A stretch of DNA of 64,000 nucleotides, from the IMG/VR virus record IMGVR_UViG_3300013005_000022, positions 54,443 to 118,442 of that record; one strand, given 5' to 3'. Both the position numbers and the translations under genes were made by a program. The notes beneath the pieces are model-generated. The model ran no database searches, was not told the origin of the DNA, and was given only the letters and a program-made list of their open reading frames with translations. Below are positions 13,775 to 49,878 of the stretch, piece by piece. The DNA is from a virus. Lineage: Duplodnaviria > Heunggongvirae > Uroviricota > Caudoviricetes. Positions within the stretch are counted from its first letter, which is position 1. Every line of letters begins with the position of its first letter.

Positions 13775-15565
13775 ATGTTTAAAGTAAAAGAATATAAAGA
13801 GGAAAATTCCGAAGATGATAAAGTAATATGGACTTCCGCGAAAGTTGAAAAACTCCTTGTGGCAATGGAAGAAGGTTATGCTACGGCAGAACATCCATTT
13901 TATGAAGGAGATCCAAATTATCGAAAAGGAAATATCGTCTTTGAATATACGGATTGGGAATACGAAGAAATAAAGAAATGTGCTAAAGACATCATTCATT
14001 TTGCCAATCATTATTGTACAGTAATGACCGATGAAGGTTATATGAAAATTAATCTTCGTCCTTACCAAGAAGATGTACTTCGATCATATCAAGCAAATAG
14101 ATGGAATATCTTTATGGCATCTCGTCAGATTGGTAAAACCATCACATCATCAATCTTCTTAACTTGGTATCTCCTATTTCACTTTGATAAAAACGTACTT
14201 CTTATGTCCAATAAGGGTGCCACCACCAAAGAAATCATGGATAAGATCAAAGCTATCGTTGAAGGTCTTCCATTCTTCTTAAAACCAGGTGTTAATAAGA
14301 AAGACGTTATGACCATGATATTTGATAATAAATGTCGTATCATTGGTCAGAATACTACAAAAACTGGTGGTATTGGATTTACCATCCATTTGCTATTTAT
14401 AGATGAGTTTGCGCACATTCCAGAAGGAATTAAGAGAACCTTCTACGAAAATGTATACCCAACGCTATCATCATCTAAAATATCCAGAGTAATCATAACG
14501 AGTACGCCTAATGGATTTGATCTATTTCATGATTTATACAGTTCAGCTGTCGATGGAACTAACGAATATAAAGCGATGCGAGTCGATTGGTGGCAGGTTC
14601 CTGGTAGAGATGAAGAATGGAAAGAGAGAGAGATTGCTAATTTAGGTTCGCTTGAAGCATTTAATCAACAATATGGTTGTCAATTCTTATCGTCATCGAA
14701 TCTTCTACTTTCATCCGATGAACTTAAAAGACTTAAGAGAGATGAGGTTGAATATATATTCCATGAATTTGATGCACTCGATGATTTAGGTTTAGATTAT
14801 TCTCAACTAAAATGGCACCCAGATTTTGATCCATTATATATTGAAGATCCCAAAAGATTTTTTGTATTTGGAATAGATCTGGCCGAAGGAATAGGACGCG
14901 ACCATTCAGTGATAAATATATTCGAACTTGATTCTTTATCATACGAAGATATCGAAAAACTAGAATCTCCTGGTGGAATCACTGACTTCTTTTCGTTAAA
15001 GCAAGTCGGTTTATTTCGTTCAAATATACATTCAATCGAGAATTTTGCAAAAGTTCTTTATACAATGTCGGTTAAAATATTTGAACAAGAAAATCTTCGT
15101 TTAGTTATTGAGTACAATGTTTATGGTGCAGAGTTGATGAAAAACCTGATTACGCTTTATCCAACATCCAATGATTTTGATGAGGATTCGGTAGTTAGAT
15201 ATCACCATCGAGTAGGAGCCAAAGTTAAACAACCCGGTCTTCGATTGAACAAAGATCTTAAAAAGATTTATTGTGAAAAGATGAAAGCCTTAGTTATGTC
15301 TGGTAAAATCCAGCTAAATGAGAAACAATCTATACACGAAGCCTCTTTGTTTTCTAGAAATCCTACTGGAACATATTCAGCACAAACTGGAAATGATGAC
15401 ATCATCATGACAGCAGTTTCGGTATCATCTTTCTTTGATACTTTAGATTTTGCCGATATCGTAGAAGAGTTCTTCGAATTCTTAGACGATGAAAAAATTG
15501 CCAAAATTGAAGAGATGATAGATGAAATCGGAGATGACAATGGAGAAATATATGATATTTTTTAG
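13775..15565 (+). CDS. terminase large subunit
   Basis: Walker A MASRQIGKT; Walker B LLFIDEFAHI; ~600 aa; immediately upstream of the tail sheath as in T4 (gp17-gp18-gp19). Confidence 0.8.
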   Translation: MFKVKEYKEENSEDDKVIWTSAKVEKLLVAMEEGYATAEHPFYEGDPNYRKGNIVFEYTDWEYEEIKKCAKDIIHFANHYCTVMTDEGYMKINLRPYQEDVLRSYQANRWNIFMASRQIGKTITSSIFLTWYLLFHFDKNVLLMSNKGATTKEIMDKIKAIVEGLPFFLKPGVNKKDVMTMIFDNKCRIIGQNTTKTGGIGFTIHLLFIDEFAHIPEGIKRTFYENVYPTLSSSKISRVIITSTPNGFDLFHDLYSSAVDGTNEYKAMRVDWWQVPGRDEEWKEREIANLGSLEAFNQQYGCQFLSSSNLLLSSDELKRLKRDEVEYIFHEFDALDDLGLDYSQLKWHPDFDPLYIEDPKRFFVFGIDLAEGIGRDHSVINIFELDSLSYEDIEKLESPGGITDFFSLKQVGLFRSNIHSIENFAKVLYTMSVKIFEQENLRLVIEYNVYGAELMKNLITLYPTSNDFDEDSVVRYHHRVGAKVKQPGLRLNKDLKKIYCEKMKALVMSGKIQLNEKQSIHEASLFSRNPTGTYSAQTGNDDIIMTAVSVSSFFDTLDFADIVEEFFEFLDDEKIAKIEEMIDEIGDDNGEIYDIF

Positions 15566-15620: not shown

Positions 15621-18600
15621 ATGGCAATATCACCTAGTCTACAACAATTCAAATCCTCAGGTGTCTATCGTTTGGAATTTGACAAAAGTCAAATTACCAA
15701 CATCCCATCTGAGACAATCCGTTTAATTATCGGATTCTCAAAAAAAGGACCTTTTAATACTCCGGTTCTTTGTAAAGACACTGTCTTCTTCAAAGAAATT
15801 TTCGGAGATATTGATACTACATTAGAAAGAAAAGGTTCGTTCTTCCACAGAACGGCTCTTGTTTCTCTTGATCGTGGTCCGGTTATTGTATTGAACCTAT
15901 TGAATCTTGACGATACTTTAGATCAATCACAATTCCGTTCTATTTCTACTGCGTCTTGGCAAGCCAATTCACCAGTTAAATATGCTCCAGTATCAAATTA
16001 CTTTAACCAAGATAAATTCTGGTTTACTGATGCTCAAGCACTTATTGACACTGCTGATAACTCTGATTACCAATCAGTTGTTGCTCAAAGATTACTTAAC
16101 GTTGCAAACGTTGGTAGAAAAAACATCTCAATTTTTACTAAGAAATCAACAACTTTAGGTTTTGATGTATTAGCTAAAGATTGGTACGGAACTGGTAAAG
16201 TGCCAGATTTCATCAATGAAAACGATTACATCTCTGATTACATGATCGATTTGATTATCGTTGAAGGTGACTTCTCGGATTACCAATCCCTTGCAATCGA
16301 TCCTATCTACGGAACTTACTTCGATTCAACTGGTTTAAAAACAACCATCACTGATTCTTTTGGAAATTCTTTAGACGGATTAACTCAATTCTTAAACTTA
16401 AATTCAGTTAACGTACTTGGTGTTTACACTGGTTGTTTAATTCCTGAATTCCAAGACAAAAATGGTAATAACCTTTTCATCCAAGATCTAGTTAACCTAG
16501 AAACTTCTAAGACTGGTTTATTACTAGGTATTAACCAAGAAACTATCGATGATGCTCCTGAAACTATTGGAGATGATTTGATCGACTTAGTTGGTCACGG
16601 TATTGAATCTGAAGAACCAACTGTGGTAGATTTCTTATCTTACTACGGTTCAATCGTATCTGCAATTCCTTATGTAGCTGCAACCGGTATTTATAGCTTA
16701 GTAGTTGGTGCTACTTATAGTTCTACTCTATGTGCTGGTGCTCAGGCTATGATGATCGCTTCTGCTTCATTAACCGGCGCTTCTTCTACAAACGGTTGGA
16801 ACTCTAACGTAGGTCACTTTGATACTTTATTAGTATATGGTCCTTCTGCTTCACTTCCTGCTGGTTATTCTTCTAAATTTACTAGTGCTACTGAATTCGC
16901 TACTTTCCGTACCGATATCTCAGTAGATAACACATTTATTAAAGCCGGTGCTTCGAATGGTGTTGCAGGTGCTTCAGGTAACTACTCTTACTTATCATCT
17001 GAATCTTATGATTCTTCAACGGATATCTTAACACTTAAGATCTCTAACGTTGCTGGTGCTGGTGTTACTGGTCCTACTTCAGTTGCTCAAGGTTACTATC
17101 GTTTATTCGCTACAGGATTAACTGCTGGTGGTACTGCTTCTTTACCTCTTATCAAATCAGTAAATTTCAACTTCGCTGAAGGTGGTAATTTATTCAATGG
17201 GGTTGCAAATGATCTTTATCAAGCTAACCTTTCAGGTATTATAACTGATGGAGATAAAATTAAAATCAACAACACTGGAGCTACTGCAGTTGCTTATGCT
17301 GAATTCACTAGAGTTACTGCAAACGACTTTACCGGTGCTACCTTTACTAATGCTGCTGCATTCGGTAATGAGGCTCCTGTATTAAATGCATTCACTAACT
17401 ACATTGAAGTTAATGCTTATACTAACTCAGATTTAAGTAGTGGAGCTACTGCAATTCTTCCACAAACAACTTATGTGGTTAACACTTTAACTGGTGATAT
17501 CAACGAATCTTTCCCTCTATGGGGTGGAACTTCTTACACAAATCCTACTAACGTAGTTTGGGTAGATAATGGTTCTACTGGTCCTTTAGGATTGAATGGT
17601 TTCAATGGTCAAATCATTAAAAATCAATTGTTACTTGAGAACTTCGGTGGAACTGGTGGTGCTACAACTATCAATCCTACTACTGGAAAATCTCGTTTAA
17701 CTAGAATTCTTTCAGTTAGTGAAGTATCTGATCCTACATCTGCTCTTTACAAAAAGATCAAGATTACAACCGTAGATCCTATCTACATTTCAGGAACTAG
17801 TGAAATTGAAAGATATAAAGAGGCTTCTAACTTTGTAACCCACTACCGTGTTACTGCACTTAAAGGTTATACTTTAAGAAGTGGACAAATGCCTGATGGA
17901 AGTACTACTCGTCAAAATGAGATTCTAGATGTTATGTACAATAGTAATATCGCGGCTGCTCTTGCTGATCGTGAAACTATTACTTTCCGTTACATCATCG
18001 ATTCATTCCAAGGAACAATCGAACCTGCAACTAAGATTCGTTTAACTAAACTTGCTAAGAATCGTCAATCCGCATTGGCAATCTGTAATATGCCTTCGGT
18101 GAAACAATTTAAAGATAGTACCAACCCTCTATTCAAATTAAACTCATCTACTCAATTTGATGCTGCTTATATTGCTGATGGTGGTAACCTTTCATTGAAT
18201 CCTTCTAACATATTCACTTTACCAGGTATTGCTGATGGTGCTAACTACTCTGCTTTCTATGGTCCTAACTTAACTATCAGAGAAGCTGGAAAAAATACTT
18301 CAGTTCCTTCTGCCGCTTATGTTGGTAACCTTTATATCGACAAATACACACAAGCACTTCCTTACTCAATCGTTGCTGGTCCTCGTAGAGGTGTGGTAAC
18401 AGGAACTGGTCTTGTAGGTGTTGAATATAATTTCGATAGAACAGATCTAGATTCAATTGAACCATTTGGTTACAACGCAATCGTTAACAAAAGAGGTTTT
18501 GGTTTAACTATTAACGCTAACCAAACTGCTCAACAAACTATAAAATCCGCTCTTTCACAAGTTCACGTAAGAGAGTTGTTAATTTACATCCAAGACGGAA

Positions 18601-18881
18601 TTGAGGCTATCCTTAAAAATTACCGTTGGGAATTCAATACTGCTAACAATCGTTTAGAAATTAAAACTTTAGCAGATAACTTCCTATCACAAATTCTTGC
18701 TGATGGTGGAGTTTACGACTTCCAAAACATCATGGATACTACTAACAACACTACTGAGATCATTGATAACAACTTTGGAATCCTTGATACTTACATCGAA
18801 CCTGTTAGAGGAATGGGTATCTTAGTTCACAGAACTACAATTCTAAGAACTGGTGCTATTTCAACTGGTAACTTTATGTAA
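15621..18881 (+). CDS. tail sheath protein (T4 gp18-like, with large insertions)
   Basis: N-terminus MAISPSLQQFKSSGV vs T4 gp18 MTLLSPGIELKETTV; C-terminal region collinear with the gp18 C-terminus including an identical DTTNNT segment; followed by a tube-like gene. Confidence 0.75.
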   Translation: MAISPSLQQFKSSGVYRLEFDKSQITNIPSETIRLIIGFSKKGPFNTPVLCKDTVFFKEIFGDIDTTLERKGSFFHRTALVSLDRGPVIVLNLLNLDDTLDQSQFRSISTASWQANSPVKYAPVSNYFNQDKFWFTDAQALIDTADNSDYQSVVAQRLLNVANVGRKNISIFTKKSTTLGFDVLAKDWYGTGKVPDFINENDYISDYMIDLIIVEGDFSDYQSLAIDPIYGTYFDSTGLKTTITDSFGNSLDGLTQFLNLNSVNVLGVYTGCLIPEFQDKNGNNLFIQDLVNLETSKTGLLLGINQETIDDAPETIGDDLIDLVGHGIESEEPTVVDFLSYYGSIVSAIPYVAATGIYSLVVGATYSSTLCAGAQAMMIASASLTGASSTNGWNSNVGHFDTLLVYGPSASLPAGYSSKFTSATEFATFRTDISVDNTFIKAGASNGVAGASGNYSYLSSESYDSSTDILTLKISNVAGAGVTGPTSVAQGYYRLFATGLTAGGTASLPLIKSVNFNFAEGGNLFNGVANDLYQANLSGIITDGDKIKINNTGATAVAYAEFTRVTANDFTGATFTNAAAFGNEAPVLNAFTNYIEVNAYTNSDLSSGATAILPQTTYVVNTLTGDINESFPLWGGTSYTNPTNVVWVDNGSTGPLGLNGFNGQIIKNQLLLENFGGTGGATTINPTTGKSRLTRILSVSEVSDPTSALYKKIKITTVDPIYISGTSEIERYKEASNFVTHYRVTALKGYTLRSGQMPDGSTTRQNEILDVMYNSNIAAALADRETITFRYIIDSFQGTIEPATKIRLTKLAKNRQSALAICNMPSVKQFKDSTNPLFKLNSSTQFDAAYIADGGNLSLNPSNIFTLPGIADGANYSAFYGPNLTIREAGKNTSVPSAAYVGNLYIDKYTQALPYSIVAGPRRGVVTGTGLVGVEYNFDRTDLDSIEPFGYNAIVNKRGFGLTINANQTAQQTIKSALSQVHVRELLIYIQDGIEAILKNYRWEFNTANNRLEIKTLADNFLSQILADGGVYDFQNIMDTTNNTTEIIDNNFGILDTYIEPVRGMGILVHRTTILRTGAISTGNFM

Positions 18882-18975: not shown

Positions 18976-19530
18976 ATGCCAGGATTACCACATTTTCTAA
19001 ACAGTAAAGCGGCTACTAAATACTACGAACCGTTTTATCAAAACTTGTTTGAGGTAAACATTCTTCCACCATCATCTATTTCTGGTGGAGAAATCTTGAT
19101 TGAGCATGTAAACAAAATTGCAGGTTTAACACAAGATAGAGGTTCAGAAGCAACCACTCAACAATACAAGTTCGCTAAAAGATCTTATGCAATGGGAGTT
19201 CCTACTGATACTGTTACTGATTTAACAGTTAGTTTCTCTCTTAACTTAAATGACGCAAACGAACTTTACGTATACAAAACTTTACGCGATTGGTTCCGTT
19301 TAATCTATAACCCACTTACCGGTGAACAAGGTTTAAAGAAAGATTATGTAGGTACACTCGTTGTTACAAACTACAATCGTGCCGGAGATATTTTCTGGCA
19401 ACGTACTTTCCATGACTGTTTCCCTACAGGAGATATCGGAGAACTAGCTTCTGATTACTCAGGTGGTGAAAAAGTTGATATGCCAGACATTAAATTCCGT
19501 TCTGACTGGTGGGAAGAAAACATCGTTTAA
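18976..19530 (+). CDS. tail tube protein (T4 gp19-like)
   Basis: 184 aa; NLFEVNILP vs T4 gp19 NLFQVEISYL; C-terminus ends in W-rich ...SDWWEENIV (gp19 ...LDYWE); located after the sheath. Confidence 0.55.
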   Translation: MPGLPHFLNSKAATKYYEPFYQNLFEVNILPPSSISGGEILIEHVNKIAGLTQDRGSEATTQQYKFAKRSYAMGVPTDTVTDLTVSFSLNLNDANELYVYKTLRDWFRLIYNPLTGEQGLKKDYVGTLVVTNYNRAGDIFWQRTFHDCFPTGDIGELASDYSGGEKVDMPDIKFRSDWWEENIV

Positions 19531-19544
19531 TCTCAATCTACTAA

Positions 19545-19570
19545 AACATTTTAAAGAGAACTCGAAAGGG
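19545..19570 (+). terminator. intrinsic terminator
   Basis: AGAGAAC-TCGAAAGG-GTTCTCT followed by TTTTG. Confidence 0.6.
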
Positions 19571-19627
19571 TTCTCTTTTGTTGTATAATCATATAAGTAA
19601 GAGATAAATATAAAAACAAAAGAACTT

Positions 19628-20038
19628 GTGGAGAACCACATACCTACATTCGAATCATTTTTAAACGAATCAAAAGCCGTTGATTCCGCAATGGATAAAA
19701 TAGAAGTTTTGCCTAAAGGATCTACATTCGAAGATGCAAAACGAATAGATGGTATATTCGATAGAAGCAAACATACTTGGAGTGAAGTTATTGAAACTTT
19801 TGAAAAAAACCAAAAGGCGGCAAAACCTAAAATGGTAAATGTAAAAGATATTCAAATAACTCAACCAAATATTCAAAGTAATAAAGTAAAGGCAATGATT
19901 GAAAAATACAACAAATTGCCTTTAATTAATGTAGTTCAATTTCCTGATGGATTGGCAATATATGATGGACATCATCGTCTATTAACTGCTTGGTCCATGG
20001 GAGAAACTAAAATCAAAGTTAATCTCGTAAAAATATAA
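19628..20038 (+). CDS. HIPTFE-FLNE family protein 1 with ParB-like nuclease domain
   Basis: GTG start; N-terminus ENHIPTFESFLNESK; C-terminal FPDGLAIYDGHHRLLTAW matches the ParB/Srx DGHHR motif. Confidence 0.6.
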   Translation: MENHIPTFESFLNESKAVDSAMDKIEVLPKGSTFEDAKRIDGIFDRSKHTWSEVIETFEKNQKAAKPKMVNVKDIQITQPNIQSNKVKAMIEKYNKLPLINVVQFPDGLAIYDGHHRLLTAWSMGETKIKVNLVKI

Positions 20039-20044
20039 AACATA

Positions 20045-20263
20045 ATGGGACACATACCAACATTTAACGAATTTTTAAACGAATCCAAAAAGCACAAATT
20101 AAGTGTAGGTGATTGGGTTGAATTTGATAACGATAAAGCTAGAGTAGAAAAGGTTTACTTTGCTCGTAACGGTAATGCCATGTATACTATCGGTAGTTCT
20201 AAACACGGAAATATTGATGTTGAAGCTGAAGATCTAGACGAAAACAAAACAAAAACCGCATAA
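20045..20263 (+). CDS. HIPTFE-FLNE family protein 2
   Basis: N-terminus MGHIPTFNEFLNESK; C-terminus unrelated. Confidence 0.55.
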   Translation: MGHIPTFNEFLNESKKHKLSVGDWVEFDNDKARVEKVYFARNGNAMYTIGSSKHGNIDVEAEDLDENKTKTA

Positions 20264-20739
20264 TGAACAATCACATACCTACATTTGATACATTTCTTAA
20301 TGAAGAAAGAGTATATGGAATGTTCAATGACTCTCAAGGAAAACCATCTAAAATATCACAAGAAATTCTAGATATTTGTTTAAAAGCATTTCCCAAAACT
20401 ATCATTGATAATATTGAATCAGTAGAAGCTGCTGGTTATGGAAAAACCAACATGGTTTCGCCTCCTACTATTTCTAATAAAGGTCAATCACGAGGTTATA
20501 ACGATTACACATCAATTACATTAATCTTTCAAAAACCAATGGGTAGAATGAAAGTTACCGAAATGTCAGTTGGTATTCGTAAAAGAACTTCTGGTCCTGG
20601 AACCGGATATATCGCAATTGATATGACTGCTAGTGGTCATATGATTCCTGGAGCTGAATGTGCAGTTGAATTCTGGTCAGATGATCCAGTTCATTTTTTA
20701 GATAAATTATACAATGAAAAAATCAAAGCATTTTTATAA
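20263..20739 (+). CDS. HIPTFE-FLNE family protein 3
   Basis: N-terminus MNNHIPTFDTFLNEER; C-terminus unrelated. Confidence 0.55.
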   Translation: MNNHIPTFDTFLNEERVYGMFNDSQGKPSKISQEILDICLKAFPKTIIDNIESVEAAGYGKTNMVSPPTISNKGQSRGYNDYTSITLIFQKPMGRMKVTEMSVGIRKRTSGPGTGYIAIDMTASGHMIPGAECAVEFWSDDPVHFLDKLYNEKIKAFL

Positions 20740-20996
20740 TGAAACATATACCTACATTCGAAGACTTCTTAAATGAAGGATTTATTAAACCTTATGGTGA
20801 GAAAATGAAAGTTGAAGACTTTGCTAAAATCGAGGTAGGGAGTGAAATTCTTTATGCTGGTGCACCTTATGAAGTTGTTAAAAACGATGGAGTTACTCTA
20901 CATTTGAAACCTTCTAAGAATTCTTATGGAATCACCGGAAAAGCTCATAAAGTTAATTTCTCTATGTTCAATACCGCTGGAGCAATCCGTGATTAG
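20739..20996 (+). CDS. HIPTFE-FLNE family protein 4
   Basis: N-terminus MKHIPTFEDFLNEG; C-terminus unrelated. Confidence 0.55.
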   Translation: MKHIPTFEDFLNEGFIKPYGEKMKVEDFAKIEVGSEILYAGAPYEVVKNDGVTLHLKPSKNSYGITGKAHKVNFSMFNTAGAIRD

Positions 20997-21082: not shown

Positions 21083-22444
21083 TTGAAATTAAGACAAGGG
21101 TTATTATTCCTAAAATCTCTACACACCAGATCTAAATCCGATGAAGAAGTTCTTCAATGGATTGAATCTAGACGATCATTAGTTAAGCATACAATTCAAC
21201 AAATTGATCTTAATAAACTAAATGGTTGGAAATTCTACGATCATAAAATTGAACATACTTCTGGTAAATTCTATCAAATTCATATTAGACGTAATGAGTT
21301 AGATGGAAGAGGATGGGATCAACCTATAATCAATCAACCTGAAATAGGTATTCTGGGATTTATTACCAAACAAATCAATGGGGTACTTCATTTTCTAGTT
21401 CAAGCTAAAATTGAACCAGGAAATATCAATATAGTTCAGCTATCACCTACTGTACAATCCACTAAAAGTAATTTTACAAAAGTTCATGGTGGAGCACTTA
21501 CACCATTTGTAGAATACTTCTTAAAAGGCGAATCGAGAATCCTAGTGGATCAGCTACAATCCGAACAAGCTAGTAGATTTTTTCAAAAACGTAATCGTAA
21601 TATCATCATCGAAGTTGAAGATGAGTTATCACATGAAAATTATTTATGGATGACCCTTGGAGATCTTGTTGCATTAACTAGATATCCTAATACAGTGAAC
21701 ATGGATAGTCGAACCGTTTTAAGTTGTATTCACTTTGGTTCATATTCATTTGAACATTTAGAGCTAAGAGATTTTCTTGGTGGAATTCAACATGATTCCT
21801 CTTGGATAGATTCTCTACTTCGTAAAGACGTATATCAGAAATCATATCCAGAAATTCTATCTTTAATCACCGATCTTAAGTTTAGAAGAGAGGCTTCAAC
21901 CAAGCTAATTTATCTTTCGGAAACACATGATTGGAATTTAATAGATGGTAAGATAGTACACAAAGATGAGAAGTATTTCGACGTAGTGGGTTATCGTATA
22001 TTCATTGAAAATCGTGAATCTTCTCAATGGGATCAACCTCTTATTCAACCTAAATCTACTGGAATATGTTGTTTCTTTGCTCGTAAATTTGATGGAGTAT
22101 TTCACTTATTAGTTCAACTAAAAGATGAAATTGGATCTTTTGATGGTGTTGAAATGGCACCAACAATTCAAATGTCTGAAGAAAATCTAGATCTATCTCC
22201 TTTCTTTGAGCAATACAGCTCTTTAATAAATACTGATTCTGTTTTATTTGATGTTATGCAATCCGAAGAAGGTGGAAGATTTTATCAAGAACAAAATAGA
22301 AATATTGTCATAGAAGTTAATGAAGATTTAGAACTTCCAAGGAATTACATTTGGATGACTCTTAATCAACTAAAAACCTTCTTACAATATAACAATTACG
22401 TGAACATACAAACACGTTCAATAATGTCATCTTTACCTTTATGA
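21083..22444 (+). CDS. NDP-hexose 2,3-dehydratase (EvaA/TylX3-like)
   Basis: 453 aa with internal duplication typical of this family: QPEIGILGFITK...GVLHFLVQAKIEPGN and QPKSTGICCFFARKFDGVFHLLVQLKDEIG, each followed by ...RNRNI(I/V)IEV. Confidence 0.75.
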   Translation: MKLRQGLLFLKSLHTRSKSDEEVLQWIESRRSLVKHTIQQIDLNKLNGWKFYDHKIEHTSGKFYQIHIRRNELDGRGWDQPIINQPEIGILGFITKQINGVLHFLVQAKIEPGNINIVQLSPTVQSTKSNFTKVHGGALTPFVEYFLKGESRILVDQLQSEQASRFFQKRNRNIIIEVEDELSHENYLWMTLGDLVALTRYPNTVNMDSRTVLSCIHFGSYSFEHLELRDFLGGIQHDSSWIDSLLRKDVYQKSYPEILSLITDLKFRREASTKLIYLSETHDWNLIDGKIVHKDEKYFDVVGYRIFIENRESSQWDQPLIQPKSTGICCFFARKFDGVFHLLVQLKDEIGSFDGVEMAPTIQMSEENLDLSPFFEQYSSLINTDSVLFDVMQSEEGGRFYQEQNRNIVIEVNEDLELPRNYIWMTLNQLKTFLQYNNYVNIQTRSIMSSLPL

Positions 22445-23397
22445 AAGTAGCTATACTAAATTGCTCAGATATTGGAAAACGCAGAATGATTCCTGCATTT
22501 CAGGCAATCCCAGGTATTGAAGTAGTTATTGTTTGTAGTAGAGATATTCATAAAGCTCAAAGATATGCAGAGGAATTTGGAATTCCAAAATGGACAGACA
22601 ATCCGGATGATATTATTGGAGTTGATCTAGTTTATATCTCATCGCCTCCATCTGAACATTTTGATTCTATTAAAACATTTTTACGAAGAAAAATTAATGT
22701 TCTTTGTGAAAAATCCCTAACAATAGATGCCTATCAAACAACATATCTAATTAATTTAGCAGATAAAAACGGAGTTATACTTCAAGAAAATTATGGATTC
22801 CCTTTTCATACTCAATGGAACTGGATAAATGAAAATCTTAATCGAATAGGTGAGATCTTATACATTAGAAGTGGATTTGAATTTCCTCCAAGAGACACAA
22901 AAACAGATTTTCGTTATAAGGCTGCTCTTGGTGGTGGTGCTCTTTTTGATGCCGGTGGATACCCCATCAAGTTAGCTTCTTTGCTAATGGGAACACCACA
23001 AAGGCTAGATGCGGTTACTCATCTATCAAAATCTCTAGATATCGATCTTTCAGGAAGAACATTTATCATCGATGATATGGGAATATCTGCATTTTTAACC
23101 TGGAGTTTTGAATCAACTTATCGTTGTGACGTGGAAATCGTTGGAACTCGAGGAACTATTAAAGCGGATAAAATATTTACTCCTAGAGTAGATGAATCTG
23201 TTAAAGTAAGCCTTTCTCTTATTGAAGGAAATGTTAACGAATCACATGAATTTGTTTGCGATCATTTCGTGGAACTTATTCGAGATCTTAAAATCAAGAT
23301 AGAGAATAAAGATAATTCTCATCATAAAAGTATATTAAAACAATCAAATTGGCAAACATATGTATCGTCTACTAGTATCAGAACCTTCACTAACTAA
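22441..23397 (+). CDS. Gfo/Idh/MocA-family NAD(P)-dependent oxidoreductase (sugar ketoreductase candidate)
   Basis: N-terminal Rossmann MKVAILNCSDIGKRRMIPAF...VVIVCSRD; EKSLT (EKP-like) motif; family size. Confidence 0.6.
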   Translation: MKVAILNCSDIGKRRMIPAFQAIPGIEVVIVCSRDIHKAQRYAEEFGIPKWTDNPDDIIGVDLVYISSPPSEHFDSIKTFLRRKINVLCEKSLTIDAYQTTYLINLADKNGVILQENYGFPFHTQWNWINENLNRIGEILYIRSGFEFPPRDTKTDFRYKAALGGGALFDAGGYPIKLASLLMGTPQRLDAVTHLSKSLDIDLSGRTFIIDDMGISAFLTWSFESTYRCDVEIVGTRGTIKADKIFTPRVDESVKVSLSLIEGNVNESHEFVCDHFVELIRDLKIKIENKDNSHHKSILKQSNWQTYVSSTSIRTFTN

Positions 23398-24442
23398 CTT
23401 TGAGGAATTTGCAAATCTTGCAAAAGAAGTTTGGGAAAGTGGAATCCTAACACATAACGGACCTAAAGTCAAAGAACTTGAACAAAGGTTAAAAGAACAA
23501 TGGCAGATTCCTCATCTATCATTAGTTACAAACGGAACTATTGCACTCGAAGTTGCAATGAGAGCTTTAGAACTTCCTAAAGGAAGTGAAATTATTACAA
23601 CTCCATTTACCTGGATTGCAACGGCATCGGCTATTCAATGGCAAGATTATGAACCTATTTTTGTTGATATTGATCCTTATACACTTAATATCGATCCATC
23701 TAAAATTGAAGAAAAAATCACAGAAAGAACATCTGCTATTTTAGCAGTTCATGTATTTTCAAATCCATGTGATGTGGTTTCTATTCAAGAAATTGCAGAT
23801 AAACATGCATTAAAAGTTATTTACGATGGTGCTCATGCCGTTGGTGTAAAATTCAGAGGTGTAGATCTTTCTCAATTCGGAGATATTACAACTCATTCAT
23901 ATCATGCAACAAAAATTTACAATACTGGTGAAGGTGGATCTATCATTACCAGAAATCCTGAGCTAGCTAAACGTATAGAAAGACTTCGTTTCTTTGGTCA
24001 TAACGAAACGAAAGATATTGTACATGAAGGAACTAATGCTAAAATGCATGAGATATCTGCAGCAATGGGATTAGCTAATTTGAAGATGTTACCTAAAACG
24101 ATTATACATCGACAGTTACTAACTCTTATGTATAAACATCGTATGGATGGTCTTCCGGTTCGTTTTCAAGAAATCAATAAAGACTCTTATAATTACTCAT
24201 ATTTCCCAATCATATTTGAATCAGAAGAACAATGTCTTAAAGTATATGCGGCATTAGAAGCAATTAAAATTATGCCTCGTCGTTACTTCTATCCATCGGT
24301 TAATGAATTCAAAATTTTTGATTCTCAACCATGTCCAGTTAGTGAAGATGTTTCAAAAAGAGTTCTTTGCCTACCATGTCATGATGGTGTAACTCTTATG
24401 GATATCGATGAAATTACCGCAACTATAATTAAAACCTTCTAA
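23360..24442 (+). CDS. DegT/DnrJ/EryC1/StrS-family PLP-dependent sugar aminotransferase
   Basis: Family signature around the PLP lysine: DITTHSYHATKIYNTGEGG; N-terminal GPKVKELEQRL. Confidence 0.8.
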   Translation: MYRLLVSEPSLTNFEEFANLAKEVWESGILTHNGPKVKELEQRLKEQWQIPHLSLVTNGTIALEVAMRALELPKGSEIITTPFTWIATASAIQWQDYEPIFVDIDPYTLNIDPSKIEEKITERTSAILAVHVFSNPCDVVSIQEIADKHALKVIYDGAHAVGVKFRGVDLSQFGDITTHSYHATKIYNTGEGGSIITRNPELAKRIERLRFFGHNETKDIVHEGTNAKMHEISAAMGLANLKMLPKTIIHRQLLTLMYKHRMDGLPVRFQEINKDSYNYSYFPIIFESEEQCLKVYAALEAIKIMPRRYFYPSVNEFKIFDSQPCPVSEDVSKRVLCLPCHDGVTLMDIDEITATIIKTF

Positions 24443-43221: not shown

Positions 43222-45144
43222 ATGAAGAAATTGCTTAAATCATTTTTACTGATGATTATTTTAGCTCTTCCGATTCTTACATTTGCACAATCCGGTCCAC
43301 CGGCACCAAGTGCAGGAATTTGGGCTTTAATAGATACTAACTATACAGTTGGTACTTCAACAGTAGGAATCTCTCAGGCTAAAATCACTCTAAAAAATAC
43401 AACGGCTACTTTATATACCGGTGTTCAATTTAGAGTATTTTACGACAAAAATGCTTTCTCATCAGCATCAGTTGCTTTGTTAGGATCTACTACAAATTTA
43501 TATTTACAATCAGTAGATAACAACACAGCAGGTTATGTGACTATCTCTTTAGTTTATACAGGAAGTAGTTCTGCATATACATTAGCCGATGGAGAAAGAT
43601 TTGAACTTACGTTTAACCACGTATCTCCGGCAGCATTCTATGCTTTGCCATCGATCAGTGCATTAACTTGGACTGGTTCTGCTACTTACACTCAAGTGGC
43701 TGCTGAACAAAGTGGTTTAGATACCACTTTAAGTTTACACAGCTATGGTGGAAACTGGTTACGTCCAGAACTTGATTACCATGGTACATTTACTAACGTA
43801 ACTGGTACTGGTGCAAAAAACCTTACTCTTGCATTAGAGAAAAAAGTTAAGATTGGTGGAACATGGGGAACTCATGCAACATACATAACAGACATTAATG
43901 GAGACTTTGCATTCTCAGAAATTATCGATACAACATATTATGATGTTCGTTTAGCAGTTCAAGGAGATTCCATGACTGTTGGTAACGTTATTTCAACTGC
44001 CGATGCTCAGTTAATTAATCAATGGGTTCTTGGTGGAGCTACTCCTACAGGATTCGATTTTTATACCGGAGATGTTAATGGATCTAATGGAATATCGATC
44101 ACTGATGCTTATGGAGTATTTGGAAGAATCGCTGGTAGATTCTCTACTTGGCCTAACTCAGTTAAAGATGTTAAATTCTTTACCGCTGCTGAATATGCAA
44201 CTATTACCGGAACACCATCAACAAACTTTACTGGATCTATCCCCGGAGTTACCAACTTCTATTTTGATATTCTACCTGGAGCACCTGATAGTGTAACTTA
44301 TTATGTATGTGTACCTGGTGATGCAAATGGAACCGGTTATAATATGGCTCGTTTAACCCCAATTGACGTGGTAATCAATCCACCAGCTGGAACTCCTGCA
44401 CAACAAGAAAACGTAGTAGATATGAAAGTTGAATATGACTTTCCTACATCTTCTATGGAAGTTAGATTACCTTCATTATCAGTTAAAGAAGGAAACCTGG
44501 TAGAACTTCCTGTTAGTGTACATACAAATGGTCAAGATATTTCTGCTTTACAACTTTCAATGTTATACGATCAAACTCTTTTACAATTCAAAGATGTTCA
44601 AAACTCACCAAAAGCAATGTTTTGGATGTCTTCTATCAATCCTACTGGAGGTATTGTAGAATGGTCTGGATATGACCCATCAGCGAACAAATCATATATG
44701 ATACCTGATGGTTATGAAGTATTCACTCTTCGTTTTTTGGCTCTTAAACCTCAAAATGAATGGAATCAATCACCTTTATATACAACTAGAAAATTTTCAG
44801 GAAATTCAAATTCTAAAGACATGACAATTACTCCAGCTAATGGAATTCTAATTGTTGCTAAAATGGCAAATGTTGGTGGAATCTTAGACGAAAGAGAAAT
44901 GACAGTTTTTCCTAATCCTACTACCGGAGAAATCACGGTAGAGTTTAGTGTAAAACAGACTGGTCCAGTTAAGTTATATATAGTAGGTATGAACGGAGTT
45001 ATATCTCATGTAATTCTTGATAGAGATATGCCAGAAGGTGAATACATTTATACTTCTAATATCAATCATCTTACTCAAGGAATATATGTGGCTTCATTAC
45101 AAGCTAAAAATCAAAAAAACTCTGCTAAAATAATTAAAAACTAA
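43222..45144 (+). CDS. secreted protein with type IX secretion system C-terminal sorting domain
   Basis: Signal peptide MKKLLKSFLLMIILALPILTFAQ; C-terminal ~80 aa VFPNPTTGEITVEF...VKLYIVGMNGVI...LTQGIYVASLQAKN..SAKIIKN matches the T9SS type-A CTD pattern. Confidence 0.75.
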   Translation: MKKLLKSFLLMIILALPILTFAQSGPPAPSAGIWALIDTNYTVGTSTVGISQAKITLKNTTATLYTGVQFRVFYDKNAFSSASVALLGSTTNLYLQSVDNNTAGYVTISLVYTGSSSAYTLADGERFELTFNHVSPAAFYALPSISALTWTGSATYTQVAAEQSGLDTTLSLHSYGGNWLRPELDYHGTFTNVTGTGAKNLTLALEKKVKIGGTWGTHATYITDINGDFAFSEIIDTTYYDVRLAVQGDSMTVGNVISTADAQLINQWVLGGATPTGFDFYTGDVNGSNGISITDAYGVFGRIAGRFSTWPNSVKDVKFFTAAEYATITGTPSTNFTGSIPGVTNFYFDILPGAPDSVTYYVCVPGDANGTGYNMARLTPIDVVINPPAGTPAQQENVVDMKVEYDFPTSSMEVRLPSLSVKEGNLVELPVSVHTNGQDISALQLSMLYDQTLLQFKDVQNSPKAMFWMSSINPTGGIVEWSGYDPSANKSYMIPDGYEVFTLRFLALKPQNEWNQSPLYTTRKFSGNSNSKDMTITPANGILIVAKMANVGGILDEREMTVFPNPTTGEITVEFSVKQTGPVKLYIVGMNGVISHVILDRDMPEGEYIYTSNINHLTQGIYVASLQAKNQKNSAKIIKN

Positions 45145-46513: not shown

Positions 46514-48208
46514 ATGTATGTTAGAAAATTCATATTCTTTTTTGTATTTTTGTTTATTACAATTGCAAGTTACGGTCAGACATTCAATTACTCGTATACT
46601 GACCCTTGTACTGGTGTAATAAAAACTATGCAGGTTCCATCAAATGGAATAACCATAACTTATTATGGACAAGTAAACACATTCCAACCATCAGATTTCT
46701 ATAATGGTGGTTTTGAGAGTTGGGCTCAAGGAGTCTATTCTTCATTTGGTAACAACAATCCATGTGCATCAGTGGTAGGTCTTCCTACTGGAATTAATAT
46801 TGCACAAAACACTGCAACTAATTTCTTAAGTATAGTAAATTCATTATCAGCTATTAGTGATTTGGCTGCATTGAATGGAGCTACCAATATTCTATCTGGA
46901 GTAGGTAGTGTATCAAATGCAAGTGGAAAAAAGGAAGAAAATAAAAAAGGAGGAAATGGTACACCAAATACTAACTCTGGAGGAAGTACACAAAATTCTG
47001 GAGGAAGCTCTACTACTCCAGGAACCTCAGGAAATCAAGGAACTTCTTCTGGAAGCTCAGGATCTTCTACTACACAAGGATCAAACAATACAGGTTCATC
47101 TCAATCACCTCAGACAGGAGGTCAATCGTCTCAGTCACCTGTAGGATCTCAACAAAATCAAACCGGAACAAATGGAAACAGTAGCAACAGTAGTACCAAT
47201 AGTAATTCTAGTGGGACTAGTAATACTAGCGGTAATACAAACAATACTCAACCTTCAACTGGGTCAAATCAAACCCAAACCGGAGGAACACAAACTGGCA
47301 ATACATCGTCTGGAAGCACAAATGCAAATAGCGGCAATGCTAATCAAGGTGGGAGTGGAACCTCAAGCGGCAATGGATCGAGCGGCCAAAATAGTAGCGG
47401 ATCATCTTCGTCCGGAGGATCTTCTGAAGGAAGTGGAACAGGAAATCAGCAAGGAGGAAGTGAAGCAACAAAAAGCGAAGAAGGCGGCAAAACGAACCTA
47501 GTTGGTGGATCGGTTGCATCTATAGGTAATTCAACTAATTCTGGAAGTGGATCTGCATCGAGCGAAAGTAGAAGACCAACTATACTTGCTAGTAGTGATT
47601 TGGTTGGATTTAATTTTAAAGATTCTGATGTTAGCAAAGGAGGTAAATTTACCGGAGGTTATACATCATTAAGATGGGATGGACAAAGATCTCACGGATT
47701 TTTAGTCGATTATACAACCGCTCTTAAAGGACCTAATGTTACTGCATTCTATGCATATATCAAGAAGAAAAGAATTGATTTGATATCAACTACTCTTACA
47801 TTAGGATTCGATAGAAAAACTTCAGTATATGGAACTTTGGCCGTAGGTCAAATGTGGAACATTGATAAAAAGAAAAAACTTAAAGCCGTTTACATGTTAA
47901 CCGGATCCTTTGGTAGTGTATACGAAGAAGCTTTCGTTGGAACCGCTGCAATTGCCGGTGTAATGTACGATTTAAAAGTTTCAAAACGAATAGATATTAA
48001 ACTAATGGGGCTATATGTCTATGCTCCTTATGTTAGTTATTATAATGACATACTACTAAAATCTCCTCATGTAGTTCTTCCTATCATTGGAACTAACATT
48101 GGACTTACGAAGAGATTTAAGTTAAACATAAATGGTGGTGGCGCTTGGGCACTAAACGAAAATGCACTGAACTACACCATAATGATGGGTACTAGATTTT
48201 TATTATGA
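46514..48208 (+). CDS. secreted protein: signal peptide, ~230-aa Ser/Gly/Thr/Asn/Gln low-complexity region, C-terminal outer-membrane beta-barrel-like domain
   Basis: Signal peptide ...ITIASYGQ; long low-complexity region; C-terminal alternating-hydrophobic strands ending ...GTRFLL (aromatic terminus typical of outer-membrane barrels). Confidence 0.55.
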   Translation: MYVRKFIFFFVFLFITIASYGQTFNYSYTDPCTGVIKTMQVPSNGITITYYGQVNTFQPSDFYNGGFESWAQGVYSSFGNNNPCASVVGLPTGINIAQNTATNFLSIVNSLSAISDLAALNGATNILSGVGSVSNASGKKEENKKGGNGTPNTNSGGSTQNSGGSSTTPGTSGNQGTSSGSSGSSTTQGSNNTGSSQSPQTGGQSSQSPVGSQQNQTGTNGNSSNSSTNSNSSGTSNTSGNTNNTQPSTGSNQTQTGGTQTGNTSSGSTNANSGNANQGGSGTSSGNGSSGQNSSGSSSSGGSSEGSGTGNQQGGSEATKSEEGGKTNLVGGSVASIGNSTNSGSGSASSESRRPTILASSDLVGFNFKDSDVSKGGKFTGGYTSLRWDGQRSHGFLVDYTTALKGPNVTAFYAYIKKKRIDLISTTLTLGFDRKTSVYGTLAVGQMWNIDKKKKLKAVYMLTGSFGSVYEEAFVGTAAIAGVMYDLKVSKRIDIKLMGLYVYAPYVSYYNDILLKSPHVVLPIIGTNIGLTKRFKLNINGGGAWALNENALNYTIMMGTRFLL

Positions 48209-49878
48209 GAAAGTTTATCACCACACTAATTGCCGTTTTGGTAACATGTGCTACATATGCACAAACGTTTACATATTCAGGCTACATCTATAACGCAAAT
48301 GGTACCGGAGCAGTAAATGTTCCAGTAAAGTTGTATAAGAGAACAACTCCAGTATTGACTGGATTCACATCTCAAACAAATTATAACGGTCACTCATATT
48401 ACCGATCAACTAGTAGTATGACTTGGACTGCTGCAAAAACTGCATGTGAAAATATGAACGGTCACTTAGCTACCGTATCTAATGCAGCGGAAAATAATTT
48501 CCTATTCAATACTTGGCCATCTGGTTGGATTGGTTATTATCAAGATAAGGTTGGTGGATATACTTATTCAGAACCGGCCGGTGGATATCGTTGGACTGAA
48601 AGTAAAGTAACTTCCGGATTAGCATCGGATTATGATGTTTCATCTTATACATCAGGATCTACTTTAACTGATATCAAATCAAGTATTAATGCCACTCTTT
48701 ATAATACTCCATCATACTCTAGTACAGGAGGAAAGTACTTAGCATTTAATGGATCTAATCAATATGCAATTACCGGCGATTTAGCTTCTAAATTCTCTTC
48801 AACTGCAATATCAGTAGTTACATGGATTTATCCTACAGGAAATGGTGTTATTGCATCAGAATTAAATATTGCAAGTCCTACATCCGGATGGCATGAATCT
48901 ATAATAGAAATCACTGGGTCTAATACTCTTCGAATCGGTCTTTGGAACGGAACTGGAATTACTCAATTAAGCACTGCTATTACTCTTAATACCTGGAATA
49001 TGGTTTGTATTACATATGATGGAACTACAATGAGAGGATATCTAAATAATGTGAGTTTTGGTAGTGTTAACTTTTCTCGTCAGGCAGCCTTTTTACATAG
49101 TGGTAATGGACAACAACATTTTGCATTCGGTTTAAGTGATGCAACCCATATGGGATCTGGTGCTTATGGTTCTTTTAGATTAGGACTTATTCAATTTTTC
49201 GATAGAGCAATTACCGTTGATGAAATTGATAGAACTTTCAATTTTTATGCATACCGTTATCGAACAAACCAATATACAAATTGGAATCCCGGAGAACCTA
49301 ATGATGCAGGAACCGAAGACTATGCTCAATTTGTTGGTGGTGGAAAATGGAATGATCTTCCGAATATGTCTCTTCCTTATGTGATTGAATTTGATTATGT
49401 TGTTGGATTTACTTCATGGGTTTTACATCAAACAGTTTATACGAATTCATCAGGATTCTATTCATTTTCTCAGGCATCAAATCCATCAGTTGAATGGTAT
49501 ATACAAATTGATGCACCTACTCCTGTAACTATTCATCAAACTTCGGATTTAAGTTCAATAGGAAATATTGTATTAGGTAGTACTACCAAGAAATCTTTAC
49601 ATTGGAATATGTTCGATGTGAATAACGATGGAAATATAACAGTATCCGATGCATACTATGTGAGTGGAAAGAAAAATGGAATATTTGCCAGTTGGATAGG
49701 ATCTCAAAGATCTGCTCTATATACGATTGCTCAATTTAATGCACTTAATTCTGGAACAACTAATTTAAAGGCAACATATCCAGGAGTAAGTTCTTTTACG
49801 ATATCTACTCCAGTGAGTGGCGGATCTACAAATTATTATCTAATAGCTCCAGGTTATGCTGGACAAGTAACATATTAA
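48205..49878 (+). CDS. secreted C-type lectin-like protein with large inserted domain
   Basis: Signal peptide ...VTCATYAQ; CTLD N-half WTAAKTACENMNGHLATVSNAAENNFL..WIGYYQD and C-half WNPGEPNDAGTEDYAQFVGGGKWNDLP separated by a ~230-aa insertion. Confidence 0.6.
   Translation: MRKFITTLIAVLVTCATYAQTFTYSGYIYNANGTGAVNVPVKLYKRTTPVLTGFTSQTNYNGHSYYRSTSSMTWTAAKTACENMNGHLATVSNAAENNFLFNTWPSGWIGYYQDKVGGYTYSEPAGGYRWTESKVTSGLASDYDVSSYTSGSTLTDIKSSINATLYNTPSYSSTGGKYLAFNGSNQYAITGDLASKFSSTAISVVTWIYPTGNGVIASELNIASPTSGWHESIIEITGSNTLRIGLWNGTGITQLSTAITLNTWNMVCITYDGTTMRGYLNNVSFGSVNFSRQAAFLHSGNGQQHFAFGLSDATHMGSGAYGSFRLGLIQFFDRAITVDEIDRTFNFYAYRYRTNQYTNWNPGEPNDAGTEDYAQFVGGGKWNDLPNMSLPYVIEFDYVVGFTSWVLHQTVYTNSSGFYSFSQASNPSVEWYIQIDAPTPVTIHQTSDLSSIGNIVLGSTTKKSLHWNMFDVNNDGNITVSDAYYVSGKKNGIFASWIGSQRSALYTIAQFNALNSGTTNLKATYPGVSSFTISTPVSGGSTNYYLIAPGYAGQVTY

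Follow-up and report, generated by a model that had tools for sequence, protein, structure and literature searches.

What function is served when four consecutive genes of a phage begin with the same short peptide and are otherwise unrelated? The question is raised by an array of open reading frames (ORFs) at positions 19628-20996 of a 64,000-nt stretch of DNA (the window) from an uncultivated phage of the Caudoviricetes, covering positions 54,443-118,442 of IMG/VR record IMGVR_UViG_3300013005_000022. We propose, with a probability of roughly 0.7, that the shared N-terminus is a capsid-targeting sequence (CTS) of the T4 type, i.e. a targeting and cleavage leader on head-packaged proteins. By analogy to T4, the proteins that carry this leader are probably packaged in the head, and roles of the remaining portion of each protein (the cargo) in injection or anti-defense are held with lower confidence. 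The four ORFs and their leaders are as follows.

19628-20038, + strand: ORF1, 136 amino acids (aa), GTG start; leader MENHIPTFESFLNE at 19628..19669 (14 codons, predicted cut after Glu14), then SK
20045-20263, + strand: ORF2, 72 aa; leader MGHIPTFNEFLNE at 20045..20083 (13 codons), then SK
20263-20739, + strand: ORF3, 158 aa; leader MNNHIPTFDTFLNE at 20263..20304 (14 codons; start overlaps the ORF2 stop, TAATG), then ER
20739-20996, + strand: ORF4, 85 aa; leader MKHIPTFEDFLNE at 20739..20777 (13 codons; start overlaps the ORF3 stop, TAATG), then GF

The gap between ORF1 and ORF2 is 6 nt. All four N-termini conform to the pattern M(x)(x)HIPTF-x-x-FLNE, nothing else is shared among the proteins, and a six-frame regular expression search of the window for H[ILV]P[ST]F returned the four ORF starts only. 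An earlier, sequence-only reading of this DNA had described four neighboring ORFs with a HIPTF...FLNE N-terminus and unrelated C-terminal regions. Both the coordinates and the sequences are as it claimed, and the post-leader parts of the four proteins fall into separate blastp clusters; its term “paralogs” is too strong, the leader being the sole shared part. The same reading held the underlying DNA to be conserved. This applies to a block that opens at the His codon and closes at the Glu codon, with no conservation of the DNA 5' of it, and within the block the third codon positions differ between copies (CAC/CAT, CCT/CCA, TTC/TTT, TTA/CTT, AAC/AAT). Variable third positions together with unconserved upstream DNA indicate selection on the peptide. 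Three simple origins of the leader were considered and rejected: chance, because nine fixed residues occur four times at four consecutive starts; recent tandem duplication, because the cargo is unrelated and the leader is present in hundreds of families; and a secretion signal, because the leader is acidic and amphipathic, without a hydrophobic core.

The CTS of T4 is MKTYQEFIAE (PMC8442874), in which residues 4 and 7 act mainly in targeting and residues 8 and 10 in processing (PMC9026906). When the two peptides are aligned from their C-terminal ends, T4 residues Y4, F7, I8 and E10 stand opposite F, F, L and E of the leader at P7, P4, P3 and P1, and T4 Thr3 stands opposite the conserved Thr of the leader. 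ORF1 through ORF4 all have F at P7 and P4, L at P3 and E at P1, in agreement with the earlier proposal that L-N-E fits an L/I-x-E cleavage rule. As aligned, the leader matches T4 at all four functionally mapped positions, which is closer than had been stated before. T-even internal proteins (IPs) have been described as “a highly diverse set ... with only a conserved CTS” (PMC3012670), and the window likewise presents a short N-terminal tag on otherwise unrelated, fast-evolving small proteins. The likeness to T4 extends from the aromatic residues at P7 and P4, the aliphatic P3 and the Glu at P1 to a gp21-family (Peptidase_S77) protease, a gp23-family capsid protein and a gp20-family portal in the lineage of the window, to hyperplastic loci, and to a capsid propeptide that ends in the same type of tripeptide. 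One leader ORF of a head module also weakly matches the PHROG “internal head protein” family phrog_2667 (E = 0.0098). The systems differ in that the leader has 13 residues rather than 10, the additional three being an N-terminal M-K-H, and a fixed Asn at P2; in a far larger repertoire, with arrays of up to 14 genes and at least 141 cargo clusters; in a protease fused to a long scaffold-like region; in the use of the motif as a polyprotein linker by relatives of the window phage; and in the host phylum, Bacteroidota.

The leader extends well beyond the window. A degenerate DNA pattern for HIPTFxxFLNE was found at 13 IMG/VR loci, mostly directly after Met-x and with differing downstream sequence, while a profile of the N-termini (44 residues) recovered 41 metagenomic proteins, all small and with the leader alone in common. 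The strict pattern M-K-x3-T-F-E-x-F-L-N-E was found at 76 IMG/VR loci, many with 2-5 exact matches. Against 596 Gb of prokaryotic sequence (bacteria and archaea), its DNA counterpart matched once, on a phage-like contig from a Flavobacteriaceae metagenome-assembled genome, and the contrast between 76 viral loci and one prokaryotic match marks the leader as a virus feature. We collected 217 non-redundant leader ORFs from IMG/VR loci with a regular expression applied to first-ATG ORFs and ending in [FYW][LIV]NE, from which the family consensus is M-K-H-I-x-T-F-E-x-F-L-N-E. The search for further tagged proteins that the sequence-only reading had suggested was therefore productive, and it also reached an ATP-grasp protein encoded in the same genome as the window. 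Among the columns that the regular expression left free, M is present in 82%, K in 73%, H in 46%, I/L in 88% and T in 65%; 177 of the 217 leaders (82%) have a length of 13 residues; and the residue following the leader (P1') is S in 27%, A in 23%, G in 12% and N in 9%, together 71%. In columns restricted by the collecting expression, P7 is F in 83% and Y in 14%, P4 is F in 93%, W in 4% and Y in 3%, and P3 is L, I or V in 68, 20 and 12%. The cargo of these ORFs divides into 141 blastp clusters, of which 104 are singletons, with a median length of 122 aa and a range of 37-1024 aa. The largest array holds 14 leader ORFs in 12.5 kb (locus L001), and this locus and L070 also contain the 14-residue MENHIPTF... 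form of the leader with an ATG start. The leader motif strings were not found in the literature searched.

Looser forms of the leader occur in another phage type, where a + strand cluster of four genes (L012 4501-6032; also L002, L006, L009 and L010) carries MSKIPKFEKFNE, MSISNFKDFDLNE and MIGKFKEFLNE. The last gene of the L012 cluster contains HIPTFESFLNE internally, behind a 74-residue acidic N-terminal extension. Within the window, an ORF that runs off the end (63785-64000) starts with MFKKFFQFIQEGKK, which is loosely leader-like (F-x-x-F-I-x-E) and lacks NE and the remaining consensus; this ORF is probably unrelated to the leader family.

Cleavage of the leader after its final Glu is very probable, judging from motif comparisons with other proteins of these phages. 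The residues predicted to follow the cut are SKAVDSAMDK in ORF1, SKKHKLSVGDW in ORF2, ERVYGMFNDSQGK in ORF3 and GFIKPYGEK in ORF4. An alignment of 14 diverse capsid proteins shows an invariant Glu in an [IL]-x-E directly N-terminal to the conserved GMGAV...GSGD arm, and across 160 loci the capsid site takes the forms LNE/S, LYE/N, LNE/G and similar, as well as INE/S (the slash denotes the predicted cut). In L210, a locus syntenic with the head region of the window phage, the capsid protein reads MYLINE/SEIF...CHNHELYE/NNSYAQLGAVNGMGAT, and the protease-scaffold protein (633 aa) holds 23 [LI]xE sites, a density of 3.6 per 100 aa compared with 1.2-1.9 in its neighbors. The residue after these scaffold sites is S, N or G in most cases, which agrees with the P1' preference of the leader. 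A separate observation is that the capsid proteins of the whole clade (loci L092-L251) begin with M-x-L-I-N-E, placing a second [LI]-N-E at residues 4-6.

The domain of ORF3, for which a full HMMER scan returned 38 representative clusters, begins directly after an [LIV]-x-E site in three architectures.

Stand-alone protein: leader, then the domain, ...FLNE/ERVYGMF
Two-domain protein P0214: leader, another domain, then ...LIINE/ERVYGMF
Polyproteins of 515-972 aa: ...FENFVNE/NENRVYGMF

Seven ESVNE-type junctions divide polyprotein P0220 (972 aa) into pieces of 76-206 aa, and its neighbors in L253 both carry the leader: one has 221 aa, the other has 656 aa, the leader at its N-terminus and, in addition, four internal ESVNE/ESVDE sites. 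As a group, P0217-P0220 (L253 8027-13586; NCBI WLWF01000437.1) are proteins of 515-972 aa encoded beside leader genes, in which domains of about 80-200 aa are joined by ESVNE-type junctions. From their sequences they look like protease-processed strings of cargo domains.

The head genes of this lineage lie upstream of the window. Locus L017 is identical to window positions 1-3453 (100%) and extends a further 7.5 kb upstream; it opens inside a gene for a gp23-family capsid protein, of which the C-terminal 45 residues are covered, and this gene ends 7.3 kb upstream of the window. The closest relative is represented by L013 and L210, both from one 207-kb contig (IMGVR_UViG_3300027733_000028). The sheath and tube proteins of L013 are 94% identical to those of the window, with DNA identity of 87-91%, and the syntenic head region in L210 is complete, with a T4-type portal, the 633-aa protease-scaffold and the capsid protein. 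A more distant relative, L139, encodes Portal_T4 (245 bits), Peptidase_S77 (47.6 bits) and Gp23 (124.6 bits). The gp21-like protease that the sequence-only reading had proposed to look for is accordingly present in both L210 and L139, as a Peptidase_S77 domain with a scaffold region between the portal and gp23-family capsid genes. Among well-annotated isolates the nearest is Tenacibaculum phage PTm1, whose T4-type head module comprises gp2-like, portal, protease-scaffold and gp23-family capsid genes; in a search for homologues of the PTm1 capsid protein, the window phage's own capsid protein was not among the matches. Leader ORFs are interspersed among the head genes in L139, L143, L112, L113 and L210, and in the capsid clade of the window they occur within 10 kb of the capsid gene in 23 of 23 loci (91 ORFs, 401 kb). 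Components of these head modules referred to here are listed below.

L210 7991-9892: protease-scaffold, 633 aa, N-terminal Peptidase_S77 over about 170 residues (49.1 bits against a cut-off of 27)
L017 3791-5296, 2.2-3.7 kb upstream of the window: RimK-like ATP-grasp, 501 aa, starts with MMNLKYFSDFVNE, then AK
L139 14087-15583 and L210 15430-16935: ATP-grasp homologues of about 500 aa, kept beside the head module

The product of the ATP-grasp gene may be a packaged enzyme or a modifier of head proteins. Located 3' of the capsid gene, an 861-aa low-complexity protein rich in Lys, Ala, Glu and Pro (L210 12370-14955; homologue at L017 839-3316, just upstream of the window) has a leader-like sequence, ...EEYQFLINE, at its extreme C-terminus. 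Two non-capsid proteins, at L015 36795-37628 (PTm1 gp299) and L252 5694-6989, contain a segment like the N-arm of the capsid protein (GMGxVxLP...GSGD), and the ParB-like one of the two is encoded between the portal and protease genes. On sequence resemblance, this segment may be a second way to attach proteins inside the capsid.

What the leader precedes is diverse, as the cargo of the four ORFs illustrates (pI, isoelectric point).

19670..20038, + strand: ORF1 cargo, 122 aa, pI 9.4; ParB/sulfiredoxin-fold domain with DGHHR motif
20084..20263, + strand: ORF2 cargo, 59 aa, pI 6.0; no Pfam or PHROG family assigned
20305..20739, + strand: ORF3 cargo, 144 aa, pI 8.0; no Pfam or PHROG family assigned
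20778..20996, + strand: ORF4 cargo, 72 aa, pI 8.9; no Pfam or PHROG family assigned

ORF1 belongs to a family of 286 clusters with proteins of about 135 aa, in which the leader is present in 26 of 26 aligned members and DGHHR is invariant in 26 homologues. ORF1 itself has no Pfam match at E <= 0.1, neither ORF1 nor ORF3 has a sequence match in the PDB, and among cultured phages tblastn with the four proteins found weak ParB-like matches, for ORF1 only. Weak PHROG ParB matches were found for ORF1, and its homologues P0156, P0157 and P0177 carry precomputed PF02195 annotations. An AlphaFold2 (AF2) model of ORF1 has a predicted local distance difference test (pLDDT) score of 90.7, and its best Foldseek matches are sulfiredoxin (Srx), the CTP-binding ParB N-domain, Noc and KorB (probability 1.0, E about 6e-4). 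The earlier description of ORF1 as ParB-like is thereby borne out at the level of the modeled fold; nuclease activity, which that description included, is not part of what the model confirms, and the ParB/Srx fold also serves CTPase, kinase and sulfiredoxin chemistry. In the same model the leader contributes to a helix (residues 8-26) that continues across the predicted cut. A link between ORF1 and gp299 of PTm1, which is ParB-like and encoded between portal and protease genes, was considered and dropped, since the pairwise similarity is not significant and DGHH[RK] alone is shared. For the other ORFs, metagenomic homologues of ORF2 were identified (P0002 and P0032), the single-sequence AF2 model of ORF3 is poor (pLDDT 64) and matched no fold, and ORF4 has a homologue in L013 that is 74% identical. 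Larger leader-bearing proteins elsewhere are mostly without a Pfam family, with the exception of ATP-grasp and cytidylyltransferase-like domains.

The slot between the tube and dehydratase genes differs among relatives: it contains four leader cassettes in the window, nine in L013, one in L028 and others in L091 and L067. The ORF2 cargo is missing from the L013 array, and the cargo that is shared in the slot is 66-79% identical compared with 94.6% for the tube protein. Leader-cargo cassettes come and go in this slot, a hyperplastic locus, and by analogy its hypervariable cargo resembles T-even internal proteins.

This turnover would also be expected if the conserved 5' coding segment of about 35 nt were mainly a recombination module for cassette swapping or duplication that encodes a functionless peptide. 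The presence of one, four or nine cassettes in relatives, the similarity of the four leader DNA segments within the window, and the shuffling described at T-even IP loci (Repoila et al. 1994, as cited in PMC3012670) are in keeping with such a module. We nonetheless find it quite unlikely, because the amino acids are kept while third codon positions vary, the peptide is conserved with different codons on hundreds of distant contigs, and the motif also occurs at internal domain junctions of polyproteins. A role in recombination is better seen as a by-product, compatible with a CTS role. Another explanation retains cleavage and dispenses with capsid targeting: the prohead protease or another protease would remove a late-activation pro-sequence or degron, or the leader would be a docking peptide for a phage or host hub. 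Cleavage is indeed better supported than targeting, with the capsid site, scaffold density and polyprotein junctions on its side, where targeting draws on the analogy to T4 residues 4 and 7 and on gene neighborhood; metabolic-type cargo, such as the ATP-grasp and cytidylyltransferase-like domains, also sits badly with packaging. S77 proteases of T4, however, act inside the assembled prohead (PMC5694885), so that a substrate must be inside as well, and the upstream aromatics are needed in T4 for targeting and not for cleavage (PMC9026906). Together with the absence of hydrophobic signal-peptide character in the leader, these points make cleavage without targeting unlikely.

In microviridin biosynthesis, the leader motif PFFARFL forms a helix that is read by ATP-grasp ligases. 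The leader studied here could by comparison be a recognition sequence for a modifying enzyme, as in ribosomally synthesized and post-translationally modified peptides (RiPPs), with a neighboring ATP-grasp as its reader. P-T-F-E-S-F-L loosely resembles PFFARFL, RimK-like ATP-grasp genes are found within head modules, and tandem arrays of a conserved N-terminal leader with a variable remainder recall arrays of RiPP precursors. We consider this very improbable, given that the leader-family cargo, with a median of 122 aa and sizes from 40 to >1000 aa, includes folded domains (ParB/Srx) and offers no short core peptides; that the ATP-grasp enzymes carry the leader themselves, as cargo rather than readers; and that the [LIV]-x-E closing the leader recurs at the capsid and scaffold sites, i.e. 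is a prohead-protease motif. No modifying enzyme consistently adjoins the arrays, and that of the window is located between tube and sugar genes. RiPP precursors are defined by a short core peptide and a dedicated leader-binding enzyme nearby, neither of which is evident here.

Several observations weigh against a T4-type CTS on head-packaged proteins. The regular expression used to collect the leader ORFs fixed P4-P1 and restricted P7 and P6, and percentages at these positions are partly circular. Leader ORFs are missing near the head genes of a sister clade whose capsid proteins carry the same cleavage motif (no matches to the leader expression in 26 loci, 356 kb), and PTm1 has no HIPTF-type leader in the 95 kb examined (first 50 kb and last 45 kb). 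Genomes with the leader hold dozens of leader genes, with cargo of >1000 aa and enzymes such as the RimK-like ATP-grasp; such numbers, sizes and enzymes make packaging of every leader-bearing protein doubtful. With a median pI of 6.3, the cargo lacks the uniformly basic character of the T4 IPs. An S77 protease in the genome of the window itself is inferred from synteny with L210, L017 ending inside the capsid gene, and among cultured phages even the nearest relatives reach no more than 34% identity in the capsid protein. Lastly, the likeness to the T4 CTS could be convergent.

If the leader is a CTS, it would dock the pre-protein on the scaffolding core during prohead assembly, presenting within a helix, as in the ORF1 model, the conserved aromatics at P7 and P4 that correspond to the targeting residues 4 and 7 of T4. 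The prohead protease would then cut after the Glu of [LIV]-N-E, P3 and P1 being the counterparts of T4 residues 8 and 10, whereupon the 13-mer would exit the capsid and the mature cargo (122, 59, 144 and 72 aa) would be retained in the head. More speculatively, the cargo may be ejected with the DNA and be active early in infection, with ORF1 as a ParB/Srx-type nucleotide-binding or DNA-acting protein and the remaining cargo as anti-defense factors by analogy to T4 IPI*.

Head-internal proteins with processed N-termini are also known from other phages. The inner-body and ejection proteins of phiKZ, 201phi2-1 and SPN3US have propeptides that are cut by a diverged gp21 homologue after S/A/G-x-E (PMC5694885). 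Under the proposed function, the phages studied here would resemble them as giant phages with many head-internal proteins, cleavage C-terminal to the Glu of a three-residue motif, and paralogues with conserved N-termini (PMC5694885). The phiKZ group belongs to a separate lineage, however, in which propeptides are mostly >100 residues rather than one universal short tag, and in which P3 is small where that of the leader is aliphatic. The Dar proteins of P1 are likewise capsid-targeted (PMC9024508). Polyvalent and Dar proteins share with the leader family a diversity of effector domains, often ParB-like, and, if the leader functions as proposed, delivery by the virion. The phage polyvalent proteins of Iyer, Aravind and colleagues are reportedly head-packaged, multi-domain effectors. 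P0217-P0220, with their repeated ESVNE junctions, resemble processed polyvalent proteins, whereas the domains in the window are separate genes, each with its own tag, and a universal short leader is not a defining feature of polyvalent proteins.

The window has a GC content of 34% and a single coding strand throughout. The tail sheath and tube genes reported in the sequence-only reading are present, and the surroundings of the array are as follows.

13775-15565, + strand: large terminase (window annotation)
15621-18881, + strand: tail sheath, 1086 aa (window annotation)
18976-19530, + strand: tail tube (window annotation)
19553-19578, + strand: terminator-like hairpin, 3' of the tube gene (consensus match only)
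19584-19589, + strand: TATAAT hexamer, 5' of ORF1 (consensus match only)
19628-20996, + strand: four-ORF leader array, in the slot flanked by the tube gene and a sugar 2,3-dehydratase gene
21083-22444, + strand: NDP-hexose 2,3-dehydratase, first gene 3' of the array, followed by more sugar genes

The hairpin and the TATAAT hexamer may mark the start of a separate transcription unit belonging to the four ORFs. Further genes of the window encode topoisomerase II, a baseplate hub, PhoH and a sigma factor, and no tRNA or tmRNA gene was found in a search of the window. A protein with a type IX secretion sorting domain indicates a host of the Bacteroidota. By sheath identity, the relatives are an uncultured 462-kb phage (43%), PTm1 (38%) and the Lak megaphages (33%); megablast with a 9-kb piece of the window returned nothing from 50,697 phage records. 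Sequence of the window recurs in freshwater metagenomes, including JGI samples 3300002835 and 3300042897.

Three other gene groups of the window were noted. Two sugar-nucleotide clusters (21083-24442 and 58848-63210) contain NDP-hexose 2,3-dehydratase, a Gfo/Idh/MocA oxidoreductase, DegT-type aminotransferases, an epimerase and glycosyltransferases, and could support deoxy-amino sugar synthesis for modification of DNA, the virion or the host surface. An RNA quality-control and repair set at 1295-4514 comprises a TROVE (Ro60-like) protein, an SmpB homologue (2933-3373) and an enzyme of the CCA-adding/poly(A) polymerase family. Of the proteins encoded at 43222-45144 and 48205-49878, one combines cohesin with a type IX C-terminal sorting domain and the other a C-type lectin, LamG and a dockerin-like domain that scores under the Pfam gathering cut-off; they could constitute a phage-encoded cohesin-dockerin pair.

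The interpretation offered in the sequence-only reading agrees with all the computational tests that could be applied to it. The finding is best filed as adding uncultivated huge phages of the Bacteroidota, with an unusually large, motif-addressable repertoire, to the kind of system represented by the T4 CTS and its internal proteins. If the proposed function is correct, leader-bearing proteins become predictable from their sequence as head-packaged and probably injected, even in phages that have never been cultured, and a large block of “hypothetical” genes, mostly without a Pfam or PHROG family, becomes a defined functional class. In T4, the class of tagged internal proteins includes anti-restriction and host-modifying proteins. 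The prohead rules of T4 (aromatics at P7 and P4, aliphatic P3, Glu at P1) would be conserved across very distant T4-like lineages. The leader could then also serve as a portable tag with which foreign proteins are loaded into capsids of phages of the Bacteroidota. Common ancestry of the leader and the T4 CTS is a more tentative proposal, to which we give somewhat less than even odds; in it, the leader labels a huge hypervariable set of head-loaded and injected proteins, stand-alone or within processed polyproteins, in huge phages of the Bacteroidota. Should this be the case, the targeting rule would be old enough to be held by T4 and the megaphage relatives alike, and a motif search would list hundreds of candidate effectors of anti-defense and host takeover.

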